The position numbers were made by a program, and so were the translations under genes. DNA of 64,000 bases, from NCBI GenBank assembly GCA_030599585.1, contig JAUVNS010000002.1, forward strand, positions 64,001-128,000, in the 5' to 3' direction. This document shows, piece by piece, positions 51,813 to 59,732 of the stretch (its first letter is position 1; every line of letters starts with the position of its first letter). The DNA comes from Promethearchaeota archaeon (GTDB lineage Archaea > Asgardarchaeota > Lokiarchaeia > Sigyniarchaeales > SOKP01). Under the pieces are notes generated by a model, which did not search any database, was not told the DNA's origin, and saw only the letters and a list, made by a program, of their open reading frames with translations.

Positions 51813-53342
51813 TTAGGTACCAGCTATTCTTTTTGGTAATCGAGTTTGTGCGCTGAGATTTTCGTGGAATAGCTTGTTAACCAAGTTAAATTTAACATCG
51901 TTGTATTGATCATCGTACCACAAGTTATTCAACTCATCTACGTCCTTTTTTCTGTCAAAAAGATCACCATAATCTCTATGACCTTCATATATCGTTAATT
52001 TAAATTCCTTTGTTATCAAATGTCTTAATCTCTCGTACAGAGGTCCAACTTCCTCATCATTTTCAATATAACAACAATCTCGTGGTTGGTCAACAGAATT
52101 CTCAGGGTCTTTTAAGACTGTTGACATATCAAAGCCTTGCATATCAGGTGGTTGTTTTCTTTTTGATATCCCTAAAAGGTTTAGGAGCGTCTTTGGGTAG
52201 TCTATAGAGCTCATTAAAGCATCTGTTACCCCCGGTTTTGTTATTCCCGGAACTCTCCAAATCATAGGAATACGAAACACACCCATATAAGCTGATGGAC
52301 CTTTAAAGAGCATTCCATGCTCACCCATTAAATCGCCGTGGTCACTGTTATATACGACGATTGTGTTGTCAGCATACCCTAATTTTTCTAAAGACGCTAA
52401 AATTTGCCCAATACTGGCGTCAAGTAACGCCACAGTACCGTATGTATAAGCTATGAATTTTCTAAGCTCTTCTTCATTTGTCTCTCTTAACATCGCCCCC
52501 GGCATAACATTAATATACGGCGCTAGATAGGGGTGGTTTCTCAAATTCTCGAGATCCTTGAAACTTTTTGGCAATTCAACATCTTCAGGTTTATACATAT
52601 TCCTATATTTTCCCGGGGGATAAACGGACTGATGAGGGTCGGGAAATGAACAATGTACATAGAATGGTTTATTCCCATAATCTCCATTGGCGTGCCTTTC
52701 CAAAAAAGCGATAGTACGTTCAGTTACATAAGCACTCGAATATAAATCGACTGGTAATTCGTGTTCAGTAAACACAGAAAAGAAATTGTCAATATTTTTC
52801 CATCTTTTCCGCATGTTCTCCGCTAATCTTGGAGATCTTTCCTCCAGCCAATCTAAATAATGGCCCGCCAAGCAAGCTCCATGCCCTATCACAGTTTCCA
52901 CTTCTTGGTACCCATAGTAAGGAATAGGAAAATTTTCTCGTACGGGATACCACCCTTCTTTTTGGAAAACCCAATCGTAAAAAGACTCTGCAGATTTATC
53001 GCCGATTCTATACGGAGCAGTGTTAAATTGATGATGCAACTTTCCAAAAACTGCTGTGTGCCACCCTCTATCAACTAGCGTTTGAGTAATTGTTGGGACA
53101 TCTTGAGAAAGAATCATACCGTTGCTTCTAACACCATGTACATTAGGGTAATATCCCGTTAACAGTGTTGCTCTGTTTGGCATACACATCGGGTTTGTAC
53201 AAAATGCGTTCGTAAATCGAACCCCTTCGCTTGCTAATCTATCTAAGTTCGGAGTTTTTAACATGTTATTTCCAGAACAACTCATGTGGTCATATCTATG
53301 CTGGTCGCTAATGATAAATAAAACATTCATTTTTTCTTTCAT
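51813..53342 (-). CDS. Formylglycine-type sulfatase
   Basis: SDQHR, CMPNRATLLTG (CxPxR), GKLH, SFPDPH, SDHGD. Confidence 0.93.
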   Translation of the reverse strand: MKEKMNVLFIISDQHRYDHMSCSGNNMLKTPNLDRLASEGVRFTNAFCTNPMCMPNRATLLTGYYPNVHGVRSNGMILSQDVPTITQTLVDRGWHTAVFGKLHHQFNTAPYRIGDKSAESFYDWVFQKEGWYPVRENFPIPYYGYQEVETVIGHGACLAGHYLDWLEERSPRLAENMRKRWKNIDNFFSVFTEHELPVDLYSSAYVTERTIAFLERHANGDYGNKPFYVHCSFPDPHQSVYPPGKYRNMYKPEDVELPKSFKDLENLRNHPYLAPYINVMPGAMLRETNEEELRKFIAYTYGTVALLDASIGQILASLEKLGYADNTIVVYNSDHGDLMGEHGMLFKGPSAYMGVFRIPMIWRVPGITKPGVTDALMSSIDYPKTLLNLLGISKRKQPPDMQGFDMSTVLKDPENSVDQPRDCCYIENDEEVGPLYERLRHLITKEFKLTIYEGHRDYGDLFDRKKDVDELNNLWYDDQYNDVKFNLVNKLFHENLSAQTRLPKRIAGT

Positions 53343-54392: not shown

Positions 54393-55916
54393 TTAAGTCG
54401 CAGCAACTCTCTTAGGAAATTTAGATTGCGCCTTAAGATTTTCCTGTAATAATTTATTTACCAACTTAAATCTTTTATCTCGAAAATCTTTTTTATCCCA
54501 TAAATTATTTAATTCGTGAGGGTCGGTTTTACGATCGTAAATATCGCCAAAATTATCTAGTCCTTCGTAAACAGTTAATTTGTAATCTTCAGTAACTAAA
54601 TGTCTTATCCGGGCCTCAAGAGGACCGACTTCTTCGTCGTTCTCAATTAAAACACAATCGCGTATTTTCTTTGTTGGATTTTCTAAGACTTGAGACATAT
54701 CAAAACCTTGCATATAAGGTGGGTGGTGTCGCTCTTTTACATTTAAAAGGTTAAGAATCGTTTTAGGAAGATCGATAGTACTAACTAAAGATTGAGACAC
54801 TCCGGACTTTGTTAGTCCTGGTACTTTCCAAATTAAAGGGATGTGACACGGTCCGACGAAAGGACATGGTCCTTTGAATAATAGCCCATGATCGCCCATT
54901 AAATCGCCGTGATCACTGGTAAAAATCACCATTGTATTATCTGAATACCCTAAATTTTCTAATGAGGCTAGTATTTTACCTACGCTATAATCTACGTACG
55001 ATATTGCAGCGTAAGTTAAAGCGGTAATTTTGCGAACCTCTTCTTCTGTTGATTCTCGTAAAAACGCTTTTTTAAAGGGCGGATTTTTTAAATGATATCC
55101 TAAATATTTATGGTGATATAAATTCTTTGCATCTTGAAAACTTGCGGGGAGTTCTATATCTTCGGGTTTATACGCGTCTTGAAATCTCTTTGGGGGATAT
55201 AGAGGATAATGTGGATCTGGAAAAGAACAATGCAAATAAAAAGGTTTTTCTCCATATTCACCCTTGGCATGTCTTTCGAGGAAAGCAATTGTTCGTTCTT
55301 GAACATAGGTAGTATTGTATAATTCTTCTGGTATTCCATCGCAATATAAACTGAAAAGGTTGTCGTAATTCTGAACTCTTTTTTTCATTTCATCTGCAAT
55401 TTTAGGGGCTCTTTCTTCCAACCACTCTGTATAATGACCAGCGCACACAGTACCATTTCCTGAAATCATTTCCACTTCGTCGTAACCATAATAGGGGAGG
55501 GGGAAATTCTTTCCTACAGGATCGTTTTTACCTTTATCTACCGCCCAACTAAATAAACTCTCAGCAGACTTAGTTTTCTGCTTAAACGGACCTAGCCAAA
55601 ATTGATGGTGTATTTTTCCAATAGCCGCAGTATGCCAACCTCTTTTTTGAAGCGTTTTTGTAATGGTAGGAGTATCTTCTGATAAATTAATTCCGTTGCT
55701 TCTAACGCCATGCACATTGGGATATAATCCAGTGAGTAGTGTTGCTCTGTTAGGCATGCAAATTGGATTAGTACAATAATAATTAGTGAATCTCACGCCT
55801 TCACTTGCCAACCTATCGAGGTTTGGAGTTTTTAGAATAGGGTTTCCTGCACAGCCTAAATGATCGGCCCGTTGAGCGTCAGTAATAATAAATATTACAT
55901 TCATTTTTTCTTTCAT
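54393..55916 (-). CDS. Formylglycine-type sulfatase, paralog of 51813..53342
   Basis: TDAQR, CMPNRATLLTG, GKIH, SFPDPH, SDHGD. Confidence 0.93.
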   Translation of the reverse strand: MKEKMNVIFIITDAQRADHLGCAGNPILKTPNLDRLASEGVRFTNYYCTNPICMPNRATLLTGLYPNVHGVRSNGINLSEDTPTITKTLQKRGWHTAAIGKIHHQFWLGPFKQKTKSAESLFSWAVDKGKNDPVGKNFPLPYYGYDEVEMISGNGTVCAGHYTEWLEERAPKIADEMKKRVQNYDNLFSLYCDGIPEELYNTTYVQERTIAFLERHAKGEYGEKPFYLHCSFPDPHYPLYPPKRFQDAYKPEDIELPASFQDAKNLYHHKYLGYHLKNPPFKKAFLRESTEEEVRKITALTYAAISYVDYSVGKILASLENLGYSDNTMVIFTSDHGDLMGDHGLLFKGPCPFVGPCHIPLIWKVPGLTKSGVSQSLVSTIDLPKTILNLLNVKERHHPPYMQGFDMSQVLENPTKKIRDCVLIENDEEVGPLEARIRHLVTEDYKLTVYEGLDNFGDIYDRKTDPHELNNLWDKKDFRDKRFKLVNKLLQENLKAQSKFPKRVAAT

Positions 55917-56042
55917 AATTATAAAAAATCTATTCTTGCTTGTTGGTTAAAATTAAAGTCTATTCTATTATTTCATTTTTGATGTTAGAAAATATAAAGT
56001 TTCACGTAGATATTAATACTCCCACCTATTACTTTTGGCAAG

Positions 56043-56050
56043 TTTTATAA
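56043..56050 (+). promoter_or_regulatory. Candidate TATA box for the leu leader/operon
   Basis: TTTTATAA preceded by purine-rich GGCAAG, about 50 nt upstream of the leader ATG. The context is AT-rich, so the placement is tentative. Confidence 0.35.
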
Positions 56051-56100
56051 GTGTCCTATAATTCACCTTTTAATAATAATTTTATAGGGATTAAAAAGTA

Positions 56101-56202
56101 ATGCTGATTCAAAAAACGACTAGAATTGAATCTAGGAATTCATTTGCGCAATTTTATCCCTTTTTATTGTTACTGTTAAATCTTCTCTTATTATTACTAT
56201 AA
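56101..56202 (+). CDS. Putative leu operon leader peptide (33 aa): MLIQKTTRIESRNSFAQFYPFLLLLLNLLLLLL
   Basis: Not in the ORF track. Ends TTA TTG TTA CTG TTA AAT CTT CTC TTA TTA TTA CTA TAA, directly upstream of leuA. Confidence 0.85.
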   Translation: MLIQKTTRIESRNSFAQFYPFLLLLLNLLLLLL

Positions 56203-56265
56203 TTACCCCTCTCTTCCATTAAAAGGAAGGAGATTTATATCTCTTTGGGGGGTTTTGTATAAAAC
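56178..56265 (+). promoter_or_regulatory. Alternative RNA stems, attenuator-like element
   Basis: ACCCCTC 56205-11 with GGGGGGT 56247-53; CTTCC with GGAAG; GAGAT with ATCTC; competing AAATCTTCT 56178-86 with AGGAGATTT 56228-36; GTTTT with AAAAC in 56252-65. Confidence 0.65.
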
Positions 56266-56281
56266 TTAATAAATTAAATAG

Positions 56282-57913
56282 GTGCAAAGAAAAATGGAAA
56301 AAAACAACAATGTAAGTGTTTCGCAAATAATGGAGGAAATTCGAGACTCACTTAGTCTTCCAGATAAAGCATATTTTTTCGACACAACACTCCGTGATGG
56401 TGAACAAACCCCCGGAATAAGTTTTACTCTCAAAGAAAAAATATCTATAGCGCAAACATTAAATGACATGAAAATTGATGTAATTGAAGCGGGATTTCCA
56501 GTTACTTCTAAAGGTGATTTTGATGCGTGTAGGTCAATATCTAAATTAGGTTTAGACTCTGAAGTAATGGGATTAGCGAGGATGGCAAAACTTGATATAG
56601 ATAAAGTTATTGAAGCAGATATGGATAGCATTCACCTTTTTATTGCTACTTCAGACCTACATCTTAAATCCAAACTTCAAATGAGCCGCGATGAAGTAAT
56701 AGAGCAAATTAATAAATATATTTCTTATGCCAAAGAGCATTACTCGACAATATTATTCTCAGCTGAAGATGCAACTCGTTCCGATTTGGATTTCTTAATT
56801 AAAGCAAATTTAATTGCAATTGAGAGTGGAGCAACGAGAATTAACATTCCTGATACTGTAGGTACCATCTCACCAAAAGCGTTCGGATATATGGTAAATA
56901 ATGTATACAAGGCAATTCCAAGTGACATTAGAATAGCAGTACACTGTCATAACGATTTTGGACTCGCCGTTGCGAACACTATAGCAGGATTCGAAAATGG
57001 AGCCTCGGAAGCACAAACTACAATTATGGGCTTAGGGGAACGAGCTGGCAATGCTTCTTTTGAAGAAACAGCAATGTCACTTTATGCTCTGTATCAATTA
57101 CCAATGAATATCATTACGCAAAAGATCTTTCCCACTGCGAAACTTATCGAAAGTTATTGTGGGGGTAAGGTAAAGATAGGACGCCTCCAGCCTTTGATAG
57201 GACAAAACGCTTTTTCTCACGAAGCGGGTATTCACGCTCACGCTATGATTAAAAACGCTCGAACTTATGAACCTATCACGCCTCAGTTAATTGGAATAAG
57301 TAGATCTGACAGTGTAGTGGATATTCTTAAACATTCAATTAAATTTGGAAAACATAGTGGTGGACATGCGTTAAAAGCAAAATTAGGAGATCTTGGAATT
57401 AAGACGAATGATAAAGAATTCATTAAGATAATGAATCACATTAAAGATTTTGGAGACAAAGGACATGAAGTTTCTGAAGAAGATTTTTTAGCAATTGTTA
57501 AGGATGTTATGGGAGAAATACCCGAAGAAGAACAATATGTAATTCTTGAAGAATTAACAGTTTTGACGGGTTCTATAACCCCTACCTCAACTGTGCGTTT
57601 AAAAATTAGAAATGGAGACTTCATAGAAAAAATCGCTTCTTCAGTAGGAGTTGGTGCAGTAGATGCGTCAGTCAATGCTATTGTTAAATGTTTTAAACCA
57701 ATGAGTAATATTAAGTTATTGAACTTCCAAATTGATGCGATTACTGGAGGAACTGAAGCCTTAGCTCATGTGACCATCGAAATTTTAGACATTGAAAGTA
57801 AAATTATAGTTAAAACAAGTGCTACTCATGAAGATATTGTGATGTGCTCGGTTTTAGCTCTTGTAAAAGGTTTGAATCTTATAGTTAAGAAAAAAAGTGC
57901 TGAAATGGAATAA
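56282..57913 (+). CDS. leuA: 2-isopropylmalate synthase (LeuA/CimA family)
   Basis: DTTLRDGEQTPG, IEAGFP, PDTVG, HCHNDFGLA, GERAGN, HEAGIH and a C-terminal allosteric domain. The likely start is ATG 56294, after AGGTG. Confidence 0.88.
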   Translation: MQRKMEKNNNVSVSQIMEEIRDSLSLPDKAYFFDTTLRDGEQTPGISFTLKEKISIAQTLNDMKIDVIEAGFPVTSKGDFDACRSISKLGLDSEVMGLARMAKLDIDKVIEADMDSIHLFIATSDLHLKSKLQMSRDEVIEQINKYISYAKEHYSTILFSAEDATRSDLDFLIKANLIAIESGATRINIPDTVGTISPKAFGYMVNNVYKAIPSDIRIAVHCHNDFGLAVANTIAGFENGASEAQTTIMGLGERAGNASFEETAMSLYALYQLPMNIITQKIFPTAKLIESYCGGKVKIGRLQPLIGQNAFSHEAGIHAHAMIKNARTYEPITPQLIGISRSDSVVDILKHSIKFGKHSGGHALKAKLGDLGIKTNDKEFIKIMNHIKDFGDKGHEVSEEDFLAIVKDVMGEIPEEEQYVILEELTVLTGSITPTSTVRLKIRNGDFIEKIASSVGVGAVDASVNAIVKCFKPMSNIKLLNFQIDAITGGTEALAHVTIEILDIESKIIVKTSATHEDIVMCSVLALVKGLNLIVKKKSAEME

Positions 57914-57945: not shown

Positions 57946-59220
57946 ATGGGTTTAACAATTACCGAGAAAATTCTTAGAGATCATTGTCAGAATAAAAAAG
58001 CTGTTGCTGGTGATTTTATTATGGCCGAAATCGATAAATGTTTGGCCAACGATATTACTGCTACCATGGCCATAGAAGCATTTGAAAAAGTGGTAGAAGC
58101 TTCTAAAGCTGAAGTTTTTGACTCTTCTAAAATCATTTTGGTCCCTGACCATTTTACTCCAAATAAAGACGTGGCTTCTGCTACTCAGTGTAAAATCCTT
58201 AGAGATTTTGCTACCAACCATAATATTACTAACTATTTTGAGGTCGGAAGAGGAGGCATTGAGCATTGTCTTGTGCCAGAGCAAGGATTGGTGAAACCAG
58301 GAGAAGTTTTTATAGGGGCTGATTCACATACATGCACTTACGGCGCACTCGGGGCGTTTGCTACAGGTGTTGGATCTACAGATTTAGGGGTTGCAATGGC
58401 ATTAGGAAAATGTTGGCTTAAAATCCCCGAATCTATTAAGTTCATTTATTCTGGTAGATTAAATGAATGGGTTTCAGGAAAAGATTTGATACTGTATACA
58501 CTCGGAAAAATTGGCGTAGATGGAGCTACATACAAAGCTATGGAATTTATAGGTGATACGATAAAAAGTTTACCTATGGCAGATCGGTTTACTATGTGTA
58601 ATATGGCTATAGAAGCTGGCGGAAAAAATGGAATTATTGAACCCGATAAGATCACCACATCGTATTTAGATGCTCTTAAAATATCGAAGGATGGTTTCTA
58701 TAATAGTGATAAAGATGCTGAATATTGTGATGTTATAGATATTGAATGTGCTAATATAGAACCACAGGTTGCACTTCCTCATTTACCTGACAATGTGAAA
58801 TCCATTTCAGAAGTTCATAGTATGAAAATAGAATTAGATCAAGTAGTTATAGGATCGTGTACAAATGGTCGGCTTGCCGATCTAAGAAATGTAGCGAAAA
58901 TTCTTAAAAATCGAAAAATCGATAAAAAGCTAAGATGTATAATAATACCAGGAACGCAAAAGATATATCTAAAAGCGATGGAAAGAGGATATATTGAAAG
59001 TTTTATTAATGCCGGCGCAATTGTCTCAACCCCTACTTGCGGACCTTGTTTAGGTGGTCACATGGGCGTCTTAGCGGAAGGAGAGAAAGCTTTGTCAACA
59101 ACAAATAGAAACTTCCAAGGGAGAATGGGACACGTTAATAGTGAGGTTTTTTTATCCAACCCCGTAGTTGCAGCTGCTTCAGCGATAAAAGGGTATATAA
59201 CCTCCCCAGAATATTTATGA
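57946..59220 (+). CDS. leuC: 3-isopropylmalate dehydratase large subunit
   Basis: PDH, GIEH, GADSHTCTYGA, IGSCTNGR, CGPCLG, STTNRNFQGRMG. Confidence 0.92.
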   Translation: MGLTITEKILRDHCQNKKAVAGDFIMAEIDKCLANDITATMAIEAFEKVVEASKAEVFDSSKIILVPDHFTPNKDVASATQCKILRDFATNHNITNYFEVGRGGIEHCLVPEQGLVKPGEVFIGADSHTCTYGALGAFATGVGSTDLGVAMALGKCWLKIPESIKFIYSGRLNEWVSGKDLILYTLGKIGVDGATYKAMEFIGDTIKSLPMADRFTMCNMAIEAGGKNGIIEPDKITTSYLDALKISKDGFYNSDKDAEYCDVIDIECANIEPQVALPHLPDNVKSISEVHSMKIELDQVVIGSCTNGRLADLRNVAKILKNRKIDKKLRCIIIPGTQKIYLKAMERGYIESFINAGAIVSTPTCGPCLGGHMGVLAEGEKALSTTNRNFQGRMGHVNSEVFLSNPVVAAASAIKGYITSPEYL

Positions 59221-59240: not shown

Positions 59241-59732
59241 ATGATTGGAAAAGCAATTAAATATAACCTAAAAAATATTAACACTGATCTAATAATTCCC
59301 GCTAGATATTTACTTAATTCAGATGAAAATTATTTAGCTCAGCACTGTATGGAGGATTTAGATCGCGATTTCGTTAAAAAAGTTAAAAAAGAAAATTATC
59401 AAATCTTGGTCGCTGATTCTAATTTTGGATGTGGTTCAAGTAGAGAACAGGCACCGACTGCGATTAAAGCTTCAGGAATTACATGTATCATCGCACCTTC
59501 TTTTGCAAGGATTTTTTTCAGAAATGCTATCAATATTGGCTTACCAATATTAGAATTTCCCGATATTGGCAACATAAAAACAGGTGATATTTTAAATATC
59601 CAATTTGAAAAGGGATTAATTAAGAATACATCTACTGCTGAAGAATTTCAAATCAAAAAGCAACCCAGCTTTTTACAACAAATAATTTCCGCTGGGGGTC
59701 TGATTAATTTTGCTCGAAAGCAAATAGAGTAA
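59241..59732 (+). CDS. leuD: 3-isopropylmalate dehydratase small subunit
   Basis: NINTDLIIPARYL, NFGCGSSREQA, SFARIFFRNAINIGLP. Confidence 0.92.
   Translation: MIGKAIKYNLKNINTDLIIPARYLLNSDENYLAQHCMEDLDRDFVKKVKKENYQILVADSNFGCGSSREQAPTAIKASGITCIIAPSFARIFFRNAINIGLPILEFPDIGNIKTGDILNIQFEKGLIKNTSTAEEFQIKKQPSFLQQIISAGGLINFARKQIE

Follow-up and report, generated by a model that had tools for sequence, protein, structure and literature searches.

Organization of the leuACD locus

The stretch of DNA analyzed here, referred to below as the window, consists of 64,000 nucleotides (nt) from the genome of a Promethearchaeota archaeon (assembly of 4.85 Mb, 33% GC). We focused on the region preceding its leucine biosynthesis genes, and in particular on the stem-loop located at positions 56205-56253 between a leucine-rich leader open reading frame (ORF) and leuA, and on the part that this stem-loop may play in a leucine-responsive control of the operon. 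The order on the forward strand is a leader ORF of 33 codons, leuA, leuC, and leuD, and the leader ends 91 nt before leuA. The nearest leuA loci are all carried by metagenome-assembled genomes belonging to the Promethearchaeota/Promethearchaeia (Loki-type Asgard archaea). The genes and the signals preceding the stem-loop are as follows:

56043..56051, + strand: TATA-box-like element TTTTATAAG, putative promoter of the leader-leuACD transcript, about 50 nt 5' of the leader ATG
56086..56091, + strand: Shine-Dalgarno (SD)-like motif of the leader ORF, AGGGAT, 10 nt 5' of the leader ATG
56101..56202, + strand: leader ORF, 33 codons, in which Leu accounts for 11 of the 12 final codons and all six Leu codons occur
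56164..56199, + strand: putative Leu-codon sensor stretch (five Leu, Asn, six Leu), followed by the stop codon TAA at 56200-56202
56294..57913, + strand: leuA, 2-isopropylmalate synthase, the first gene in the putatively regulated series (NF002085, 554.8 bits, cut-off 517)
57946..59220, + strand: leuC (TIGR02083, 654.5 bits, cut-off 610.65)
59241..59732, + strand: leuD (TIGR02087, 175.6 bits, cut-off 108.95; TIGR02084, 207.9 bits, which is under the cut-off of that model)

The TTTTATAAG motif is unchanged in six members of the genus despite the differences in its flanks, even where the upstream gene is a different one, and the position of 56043..56051 relative to the leader ATG would be compatible with that of an archaeal promoter. 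The N-terminus of LeuA was found to be conserved starting at the first Met.

A conserved hairpin at the leader stop codon

The segment located between the leader stop codon and leuA can be divided into the following elements:

56205..56211, + strand: 5' arm of the outer stem, beginning 2 nt past the stop codon and opening the 12-nt pyrimidine run 56206-56217
56213..56229, + strand: inner hairpin 1 (arms 56213-17/56225-29), five pairs, two of them compensatory within the genus
56230..56244, + strand: inner hairpin 2 (arms 56230-34/56240-44), four pairs in the genus consensus, one of them compensatory
56247..56253, + strand: 3' arm of the outer stem, purine-rich and SD-like
56254..56257, + strand: U4 run 3' of the stem, present in 4 of the 10 distinct genus sequences, at the genus level only
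56252..56264, + strand: weak AU hairpin overlapping the 3' arm of the outer stem
56254..56293, + strand: A-rich spacer holding the leuA SD sequence AGGTG (56280-56284)

The Y-shaped fold formed by the outer stem and the two inner hairpins is both the minimum free energy (MFE) structure and the centroid of 56200-56262 (-20.3 kcal/mol; z of -2.0, 10 of the 200 shuffled sequences being equally stable). All the pairings named in a first-pass annotation of this DNA were recovered, and the GC-enriched stretch that it had noticed in an AT-rich intergenic region contains 43% GC in the stem region versus 23% in the remainder. The outer stem enclosing two hairpins and the C/U-rich tract which it had described were also borne out, since the stem is retained in nine genus sequences and the 12 nt of 56206-56217 are all pyrimidines.

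As a z-score of -2 is modest when taken alone, we examined the relatives of this locus. The leuA orthologs were gathered from the genus, family, order, and phylum, and 58 distinct upstream sequences carrying a Leu-rich leader ORF were obtained. In the nine genus sequences analyzed with RNAalifold, the identical Y shape was found, with 17 pairs, four of which show compensatory changes. The MFE structure of the 75 nt past the leader stop codon was a long hairpin in all 58 relatives, beginning between -3 and +6 nt from the stop codon, measuring 44-67 nt in length, and ending mostly 32-45 nt before the leuA ATG. These hairpins gave a mean z-score of -3.47 against dinucleotide shuffles, 81% of them lying under -2, while the 68 nt past 220 ordinary stop codons of the genome, which were used as a control, gave a mean MFE of -5.8 kcal/mol and a mean z-score of -0.05. 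When the arms were exchanged between relatives, the native hairpins averaged -19.1 kcal/mol versus -11.6 kcal/mol in the chimeras, which amounts to a mean loss of 7.5 kcal/mol, and the median rank of the native partner was 1 of 57; since the native partner ranks best, the two halves of the hairpin co-evolve. The arms also show a constant polarity across the family, as the 5' arm consists of 77% pyrimidines (about 50% being expected) and the 3' arm of 72% purines. RNAalifold detected no pairs at all in the cross-genus MAFFT alignments (58 and 29 sequences), in which the arms were misaligned; when the structure was supplied by hand and a covariance model (R1) was used, the outer helix was 79% paired.

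The leader and the hairpin occur together 5' of leuA in the 58 distinct sequences, which belong to at least ten genera of two families (f1 and f2) and include every f1 genus examined and four f2 genera. Both are absent 5' of leuA in 19 more loci: one in f2, four in f3/f4, and 14 in f10/f18/f21. No Rfam family, the Leu leader RF00512 included, was detected at its gathering score in the window, and only chance-level matches were obtained when 55900-56400 was searched at E-values up to 10.

The purine-rich 3' arms were also compared with the 3' end of the 16S rRNA of this genome, with which they pair at -6.6 kcal/mol, the value for the true leuA SD region being -4.4 kcal/mol. The resemblance of the 3' arm to an SD sequence is mostly due to composition (z of -0.67 against shuffled arms), and it was kept as a lead only. 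Two candidates were discarded: a pairing of the leader initiation region with the hairpin region (mean z of -0.34 for leuA), and a second short ORF starting at the exposed 3' arm, for which the start codon was found by eye at no consistent distance.

In one case (L009/L076, G039:C95), the leader and the hairpin are located about 365 nt 5' of leuA, with a much longer spacer which contains a run of N and a second copy of the leuA start region; this spacer may be either an assembly artefact or a true insertion.

Conservation of the leader ORF

The share of Leu among the 58 relatives amounts to 90-98% at the four codons nearest the stop codon (-1 to -4), 74-79% at -5 and -6, and 45-64% at -7 to -13, and declines farther upstream. 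This concentration of Leu at the codons nearest the stop means that the putative sensor is packed against the stop codon and the hairpin. Among eight genus members, the last 12 leader codons show 18 synonymous versus 2 non-synonymous differences. In 36 of the 58 relatives, the leader start has an SD-like motif within -18..-4, and the N-terminus of the leader is partly kept between genera. Because many versions of the leader have Leu alternating with Asp, Glu, Asn, or Ser, what is maintained is Leu rather than hydrophobicity. From its sequence, the leader ORF looks translated. In its N-terminal coding part, a 5-bp palindromic hairpin was observed at 56120-56135 in some genus members only, which probably has no function.

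The leuA start is preceded by an SD-like motif at -17..-5 in 54 of the 58 relatives. Start codons show an enrichment in G at -7..-14 throughout the genome (AGGT, GGTG, GGAG), and there are indications suggesting that SD-led and short-leader mRNAs are mixed in this genome.

Predicted occlusion of the hairpin by a ribosome

The hairpin was folded under the constraint of a ribosome footprint, which was one of the checks proposed in the first-pass annotation. With the A site placed on the last Leu codon or on the stop codon, the predicted stability dropped from -22.2 to about -13 kcal/mol and the outer stem was lost, whereas footprints on earlier Leu codons left the hairpin fold unchanged. A ribosome having its A site on the stop codon, or on any of the last two or three Leu codons, would lie over the pyrimidine-rich 5' arm and keep the outer stem from closing, whereas the fold would stay intact with a ribosome farther upstream or with none. 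The folding models support the idea that the position of the ribosome at the end of the leader would decide whether the 5' arm of the hairpin is free, and the best-supported mode in these models would be the direct occlusion of a single hairpin, involving no refolding between alternative stems. Our preferred explanation, held at about even odds, is that the 56205-56253 stem-loop constitutes the RNA moiety of a leader-peptide element that senses leucine and controls leuACD in cis.

According to this proposal, the element would report the time spent by the ribosome at the terminal Leu run. With ample charged tRNA-Leu, the ribosome would terminate and leave, the hairpin would close, and leuA would be held down; when Leu-tRNA is short, the ribosome would stay on the terminal codons, so that the hairpin would be open and leuA expressed. 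The closed hairpin is assigned to the OFF state because of the placement of the Leu codons and because leuA would have to be induced once Leu-tRNA runs short. The closed hairpin might act by promoting premature 3'-end formation or RNA polymerase pausing, possibly with aCPSF1/FttA, or else by affecting the translation of leuA.

Several observations weigh against this proposal. There is no conserved U-tract to supply the output, and the hairpin excludes the leuA SD sequence, as it ends about 27 nt 5' of it. The predicted accessibility of the SD sequence and AUG across the family is 0.49 in the free RNA versus 0.55-0.62 in the presence of the ribosome, the genome average being 0.46. In the constrained folds, the two inner hairpins survive. 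Enrichment in Leu extends to codons -7 to -13, yet a ribosome stalled there would miss the hairpin, which makes the model less straightforward for severe starvation. The weak point which every version of the model would have to face is that the hairpin is predicted to be closed when the ribosome stalls at these more distant codons. The polarity might also be reversed, the closed hairpin corresponding to the ON state. Lastly, covariation, the other check proposed on the structure, gave a divided answer: it was visible in the four compensatory pairs within the genus, but column-wise covariation between genera was weak, and on the model-fitted alignment it exceeded that of column shuffles (0 of 500) but not that of slid partners. 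Slid partners score as well because the arms are runs of pyrimidines and purines. In view of this weak cross-genus covariation, we relied on the genus consensus, on the exchange of arms between relatives, and on the z-scores against shuffled sequences, with ordinary gene ends as the control.

Similar leaders in the same genome

The genome was scanned for other leaders rich in cognate codons and followed by a post-stop hairpin. Those of leuA, leuS, and ileS were the only convincing cases found, the remaining hits resembling low-complexity noise. The leuS and ileS leaders, both located outside the window, repeat the arrangement seen at leuA, in which the cognate codons abut the stop codon and a hairpin comes next. 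The leuS leader (G000:C21:128621-128870, minus strand; L086/L088) is a Leu-rich ORF of 30 codons, separated by 159 nt from the leucyl-tRNA synthetase gene that it precedes (NF008957, 1070.8 bits). Its hairpin begins at the leader stop codon, and the loop contains a conserved U-rich tract, which reads T5-C-T4 in this genome. Both the leader and the hairpin are kept in 21 genomes of family f1 and are absent in four more distant loci with a leucyl-tRNA synthetase about 50% identical. The ileS leader (G000:C28:118565-118770, plus strand; L087/L113) has 24 codons, Ile accounting for 6 of the final 12. The gene found 132 nt downstream of it encodes a second isoleucyl-tRNA synthetase, of 951 aa, the other copy (1062 aa) being located on contig C34. 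The loop of the hairpin 3' of the leader stop codon carries the motif TCCACATCC, which is complementary to GGATGTGGA just 5' of the leader ATG, and both motifs are kept in the eight genomes in which this leader is conserved. This conserved complementarity suggests a long-range pairing between TCCACATCC and GGATGTGGA that would enclose the ileS leader.

The fact that the amino acid of each leader matches its downstream gene argues strongly that these leaders are sensors and not chance ORFs. On a larger scale, we tentatively propose, with confidence somewhat short of even, that Loki-type Asgard archaea may sense charged tRNA by means of the ribosome, in a design that departs from the bacterial one, using a codon run abutting the stop codon, a single hairpin whose 5' arm falls within the footprint of a ribosome detained there, and, in place of a hairpin-plus-U terminator, an archaeal output machinery (such as aCPSF1/FttA-dependent 3'-end formation, pausing, or coupling), and that this arrangement may be shared by leuA, leuS, and the second ileS.

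Terminator signals

No T-run was found at a conserved position inside or after the hairpin among the 58 relatives, 19 of which have runs of T5 or more at scattered places, and the tail past the hairpin is A-rich across the family. In the window, the longest T run in 56203-56293 is T4, which is short of the T5 criterion for archaeal oligo-T terminators. At the ends of the ordinary genes of this genome, the coverage by T5 or longer runs 10-30 nt past the stop codons is 0.108 versus 0.06 in the case of A5 or longer runs, and these ends show T-tracts without any excess of RNA structure. Since the U-run is not conserved and ordinary ends consist of T-tracts without hairpins, the element is neither a bacterial-type nor an ordinary archaeal terminator. 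A scan for sigma-70 promoters and terminators yielded nothing above the shuffled sequences, but this model is bacterial and irrelevant to an archaeon.

Other explanations for the leader and the hairpin

The first-pass annotation had interpreted the region as a set of mutually exclusive stems constituting an output switch. One form of this switch would be a terminator/antiterminator system comparable to the bacterial leu, trp, and his leaders, in which the outer stem and the U4 run form an intrinsic terminator and either the Leu-codon pairing or the AU hairpin competes with it. The GC-rich outer stem does run directly into TTTT in the window, and the competing pairing of 9 bp (56178-86 with 56228-36; -8.9 kcal/mol as a duplex) and the overlapping AU hairpin can both be drawn, the latter, by eye, in about half of the genus sequences. 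However, the AU hairpin folds only under an imposed footprint, and enforcing the 56178-86/56228-36 pairing, which requires ribosome-free Leu codons, gives -12.5 instead of -22.2 kcal/mol, that is, a cost of 9.7 kcal/mol. This pairing drops to -3.7 to -5.8 kcal/mol in the nearest relatives, and in 57 sequences controls with permuted codons matched the pairing between the Leu codons and the 3' half of the hairpin (mean z of -0.17), so that on account of its energy cost and the permutation control it was rejected as a conserved feature. The U-run is missing from most of the genus members and from the family, ordinary genes end with T5+ tracts and no hairpins, and no Rfam match points to a known leader of this kind. 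What is left of the proposed switch is a conserved RNA module between the Leu leader and leuA in which one hairpin only is conserved, and we take terminator/antiterminator refolding to be very unlikely. The other form would be a factor-dependent attenuation, the C/U tract past the stop codon serving as an entry or recognition site for aCPSF1/FttA. A ribosome on the terminal Leu codons would mask this tract and let the polymerase escape termination, while normal release would expose it and lead to cleavage and termination of the transcript. The genome encodes an aCPSF1/FttA ortholog (885 bits, cut-off 580), the tract lies within the ribosome footprint of the last codons, the pyrimidine composition of the 5' arm is conserved beyond what pairing requires, and the lack of any conserved intrinsic signal leaves room for a factor. 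Such a site would nevertheless be paired in a stable conserved hairpin and thereby concealed, for which this model offers no explanation, and pyrimidines do not predominate in the 5' arm of the leuS-type hairpin of this genome; we take this route to be very unlikely as well.

In a translational version of the control, comparable to the mycobacterial polycysteine ORFs or to ermC, a ribosome placed on the Leu codons or the 5' arm would alter the initiation of leuA, either by freeing its ribosome binding site from pairing with the U-rich Leu codons or by exposing the purine-rich, SD-like 3' arm, which would serve as a standby site some 36 nt before the start. In the MFE structure of the entire leader, the spacer, the SD sequence, and the AUG are base-paired with the Leu codons, and the hairpin is flanked by zones of matching length, one of them Leu-rich (about 13 codons) and the other being the spacer (about 36 nt); but the long-range pairing involves 16.6 pairs versus 17.5 with permuted codons, and 78% of the initiation regions found elsewhere in the genome are at least as good partners for the Leu run, which led us to reject the masking of the leuA SD sequence and AUG by the Leu codons, as it is not specific to leuA. 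The leuA initiation region of the window is at the 11th percentile of accessibility, whereas the family value given above equals the genome average and is raised only slightly by the footprints. The 3' arm pairs with the 16S rRNA better than the true SD sequence, although mostly by virtue of its composition. The narrow range of hairpin-to-ATG distances in most of the 58 relatives hints at a link with initiation, but the spacers of four lineages, which range from 52 to about 300 nt, argue against a strict distance, and the leuS and ileS leaders are located 70-100 nt from their start codons. There exists a published precedent for this logic in mycobacteria (10.1101/834739), and we regard a translational output as unlikely. 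Least probable of all would be the absence of any switch, the ORF being an independent Leu-rich micropeptide gene with a hairpin that marks or stabilizes the 3' end of its transcript, and leuA having its own promoter in the spacer. A TATA-like A/T-rich sequence is indeed present past the hairpin at about -36..-29 of the leuA ATG, TTTAAA is mildly enriched at -28..-35 of start codons throughout the genome, and the partial conservation of the leader N-terminus between genera would suit a peptide with a function of its own. Against this, the ORF keeps Leu codons and not hydrophobicity; its linkage to leuA, with a fixed distance between the two, is invariable; leuS and ileS have leaders of their own, rich in Leu and Ile, respectively; the SD sequence of leuA conserved in 54 of the 58 relatives would lie upstream of a transcript started in the spacer; and ordinary gene ends carry no hairpins.

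Neighboring genes and distribution of leuA

Two paralogous arylsulfatase-like genes encoding about 508 aa are located 5' of the leader on the minus strand (51813-53342 and 54393-55916), and a gene encoding a membrane protein of 307 aa lies between them. The second of these paralogs matches NF010322 with 247 bits, under the cut-off. In the relative L007, the upstream neighbor is different and the leader promoter motif is retained.

The leuA ortholog is patchy in the genus. Of 24 genomes sampled, only about nine yielded a match exceeding 70% identity, and in another sample two genomes of 16 did. The genomes with no close leuA match carry only paralogs with 35-38% identity. This distribution suggests that leucine biosynthesis is frequently lost or gained in these archaea.

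Comparison with known systems and significance

Ribosome-mediated attenuation is a textbook bacterial mechanism; in the literature searched, we found no report of leader-peptide attenuation in archaea, Asgard archaea included. The element resembles the enterobacterial leaders leuL (RF00512), trpL, hisL, pheL, thrL, and ilvL in that a short ORF with a run of cognate codons lies directly 5' of the first gene of the pathway and is followed by a structured RNA, and in that the position of the ribosome on the regulatory codons would set which RNA structure exists. It differs from leuL-type leaders in several respects: the host is an archaeon and no Rfam model matches; the Leu codons reach the stop codon, whereas those of bacterial leaders end several codons earlier; and there is one conserved hairpin, with neither a conserved antiterminator/terminator alternative nor a conserved U-run.

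In the Escherichia coli pyrBI operon, UTP is sensed via RNA polymerase pausing, and the output is a canonical hairpin-plus-U terminator. As in pyrBI, a translating ribosome would block the present hairpin by covering its 5' arm, with no antiterminator, but it is Leu-tRNA that would be sensed here, and a canonical terminator is not conserved. In E. coli tnaC, the nascent peptide and free tryptophan cause the ribosome to stall, which induces a catabolic operon. The likeness to the tnaC/Rho system lies in a ribosome at the end of the leader masking a pyrimidine-rich site by the stop codon, with aCPSF1/FttA as a conceivable factor; the signal here would be uncharged tRNA at the Leu codons, however, and the site lies inside a hairpin.

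In mycobacteria, the study on the 'Cys ribulon' (Canestrari et al., 10.1101/834739) describes polycysteine leaderless short ORFs in which a stalled ribosome blocks an RNA structure, making a terminator unnecessary. These ORFs share with the leuA leader a short ORF carrying the codon tract of a single amino acid and the blocking of a structure by a stalled ribosome. Unlike them, the leuA leader has a 5' untranslated region and an SD-like motif, and its hairpin does not contain the leuA SD sequence, the accessibility of which barely shifts. The systems in which a ribosome blocks one structure, namely pyrBI and the mycobacterial polycysteine ORFs, would therefore be the closest ones in terms of their logic. 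In view of the missing antiterminator and U-run, and of Leu codons that extend as far as the stop, a new kind of output step may be involved.

At the practical level, elements of this kind would be useful for annotation purposes, as they single out, among duplicated genes for aminoacyl-tRNA synthetases and among biosynthetic genes, the ones responding to starvation. The leuA element itself would provide a small, defined, and mutable template for studying termination, pausing, and coupling in archaea (FttA, Spt4/5, ribosome-polymerase contacts). A leader and hairpin conserved throughout the lineage would show that Asgard archaea couple the translation of a leader to the expression of the downstream genes, and the ribosome-based sensing of charged tRNA proposed above, if true, would constitute direct evidence of a regulatory coupling between transcription and translation in the closest prokaryotic relatives of the eukaryotes.

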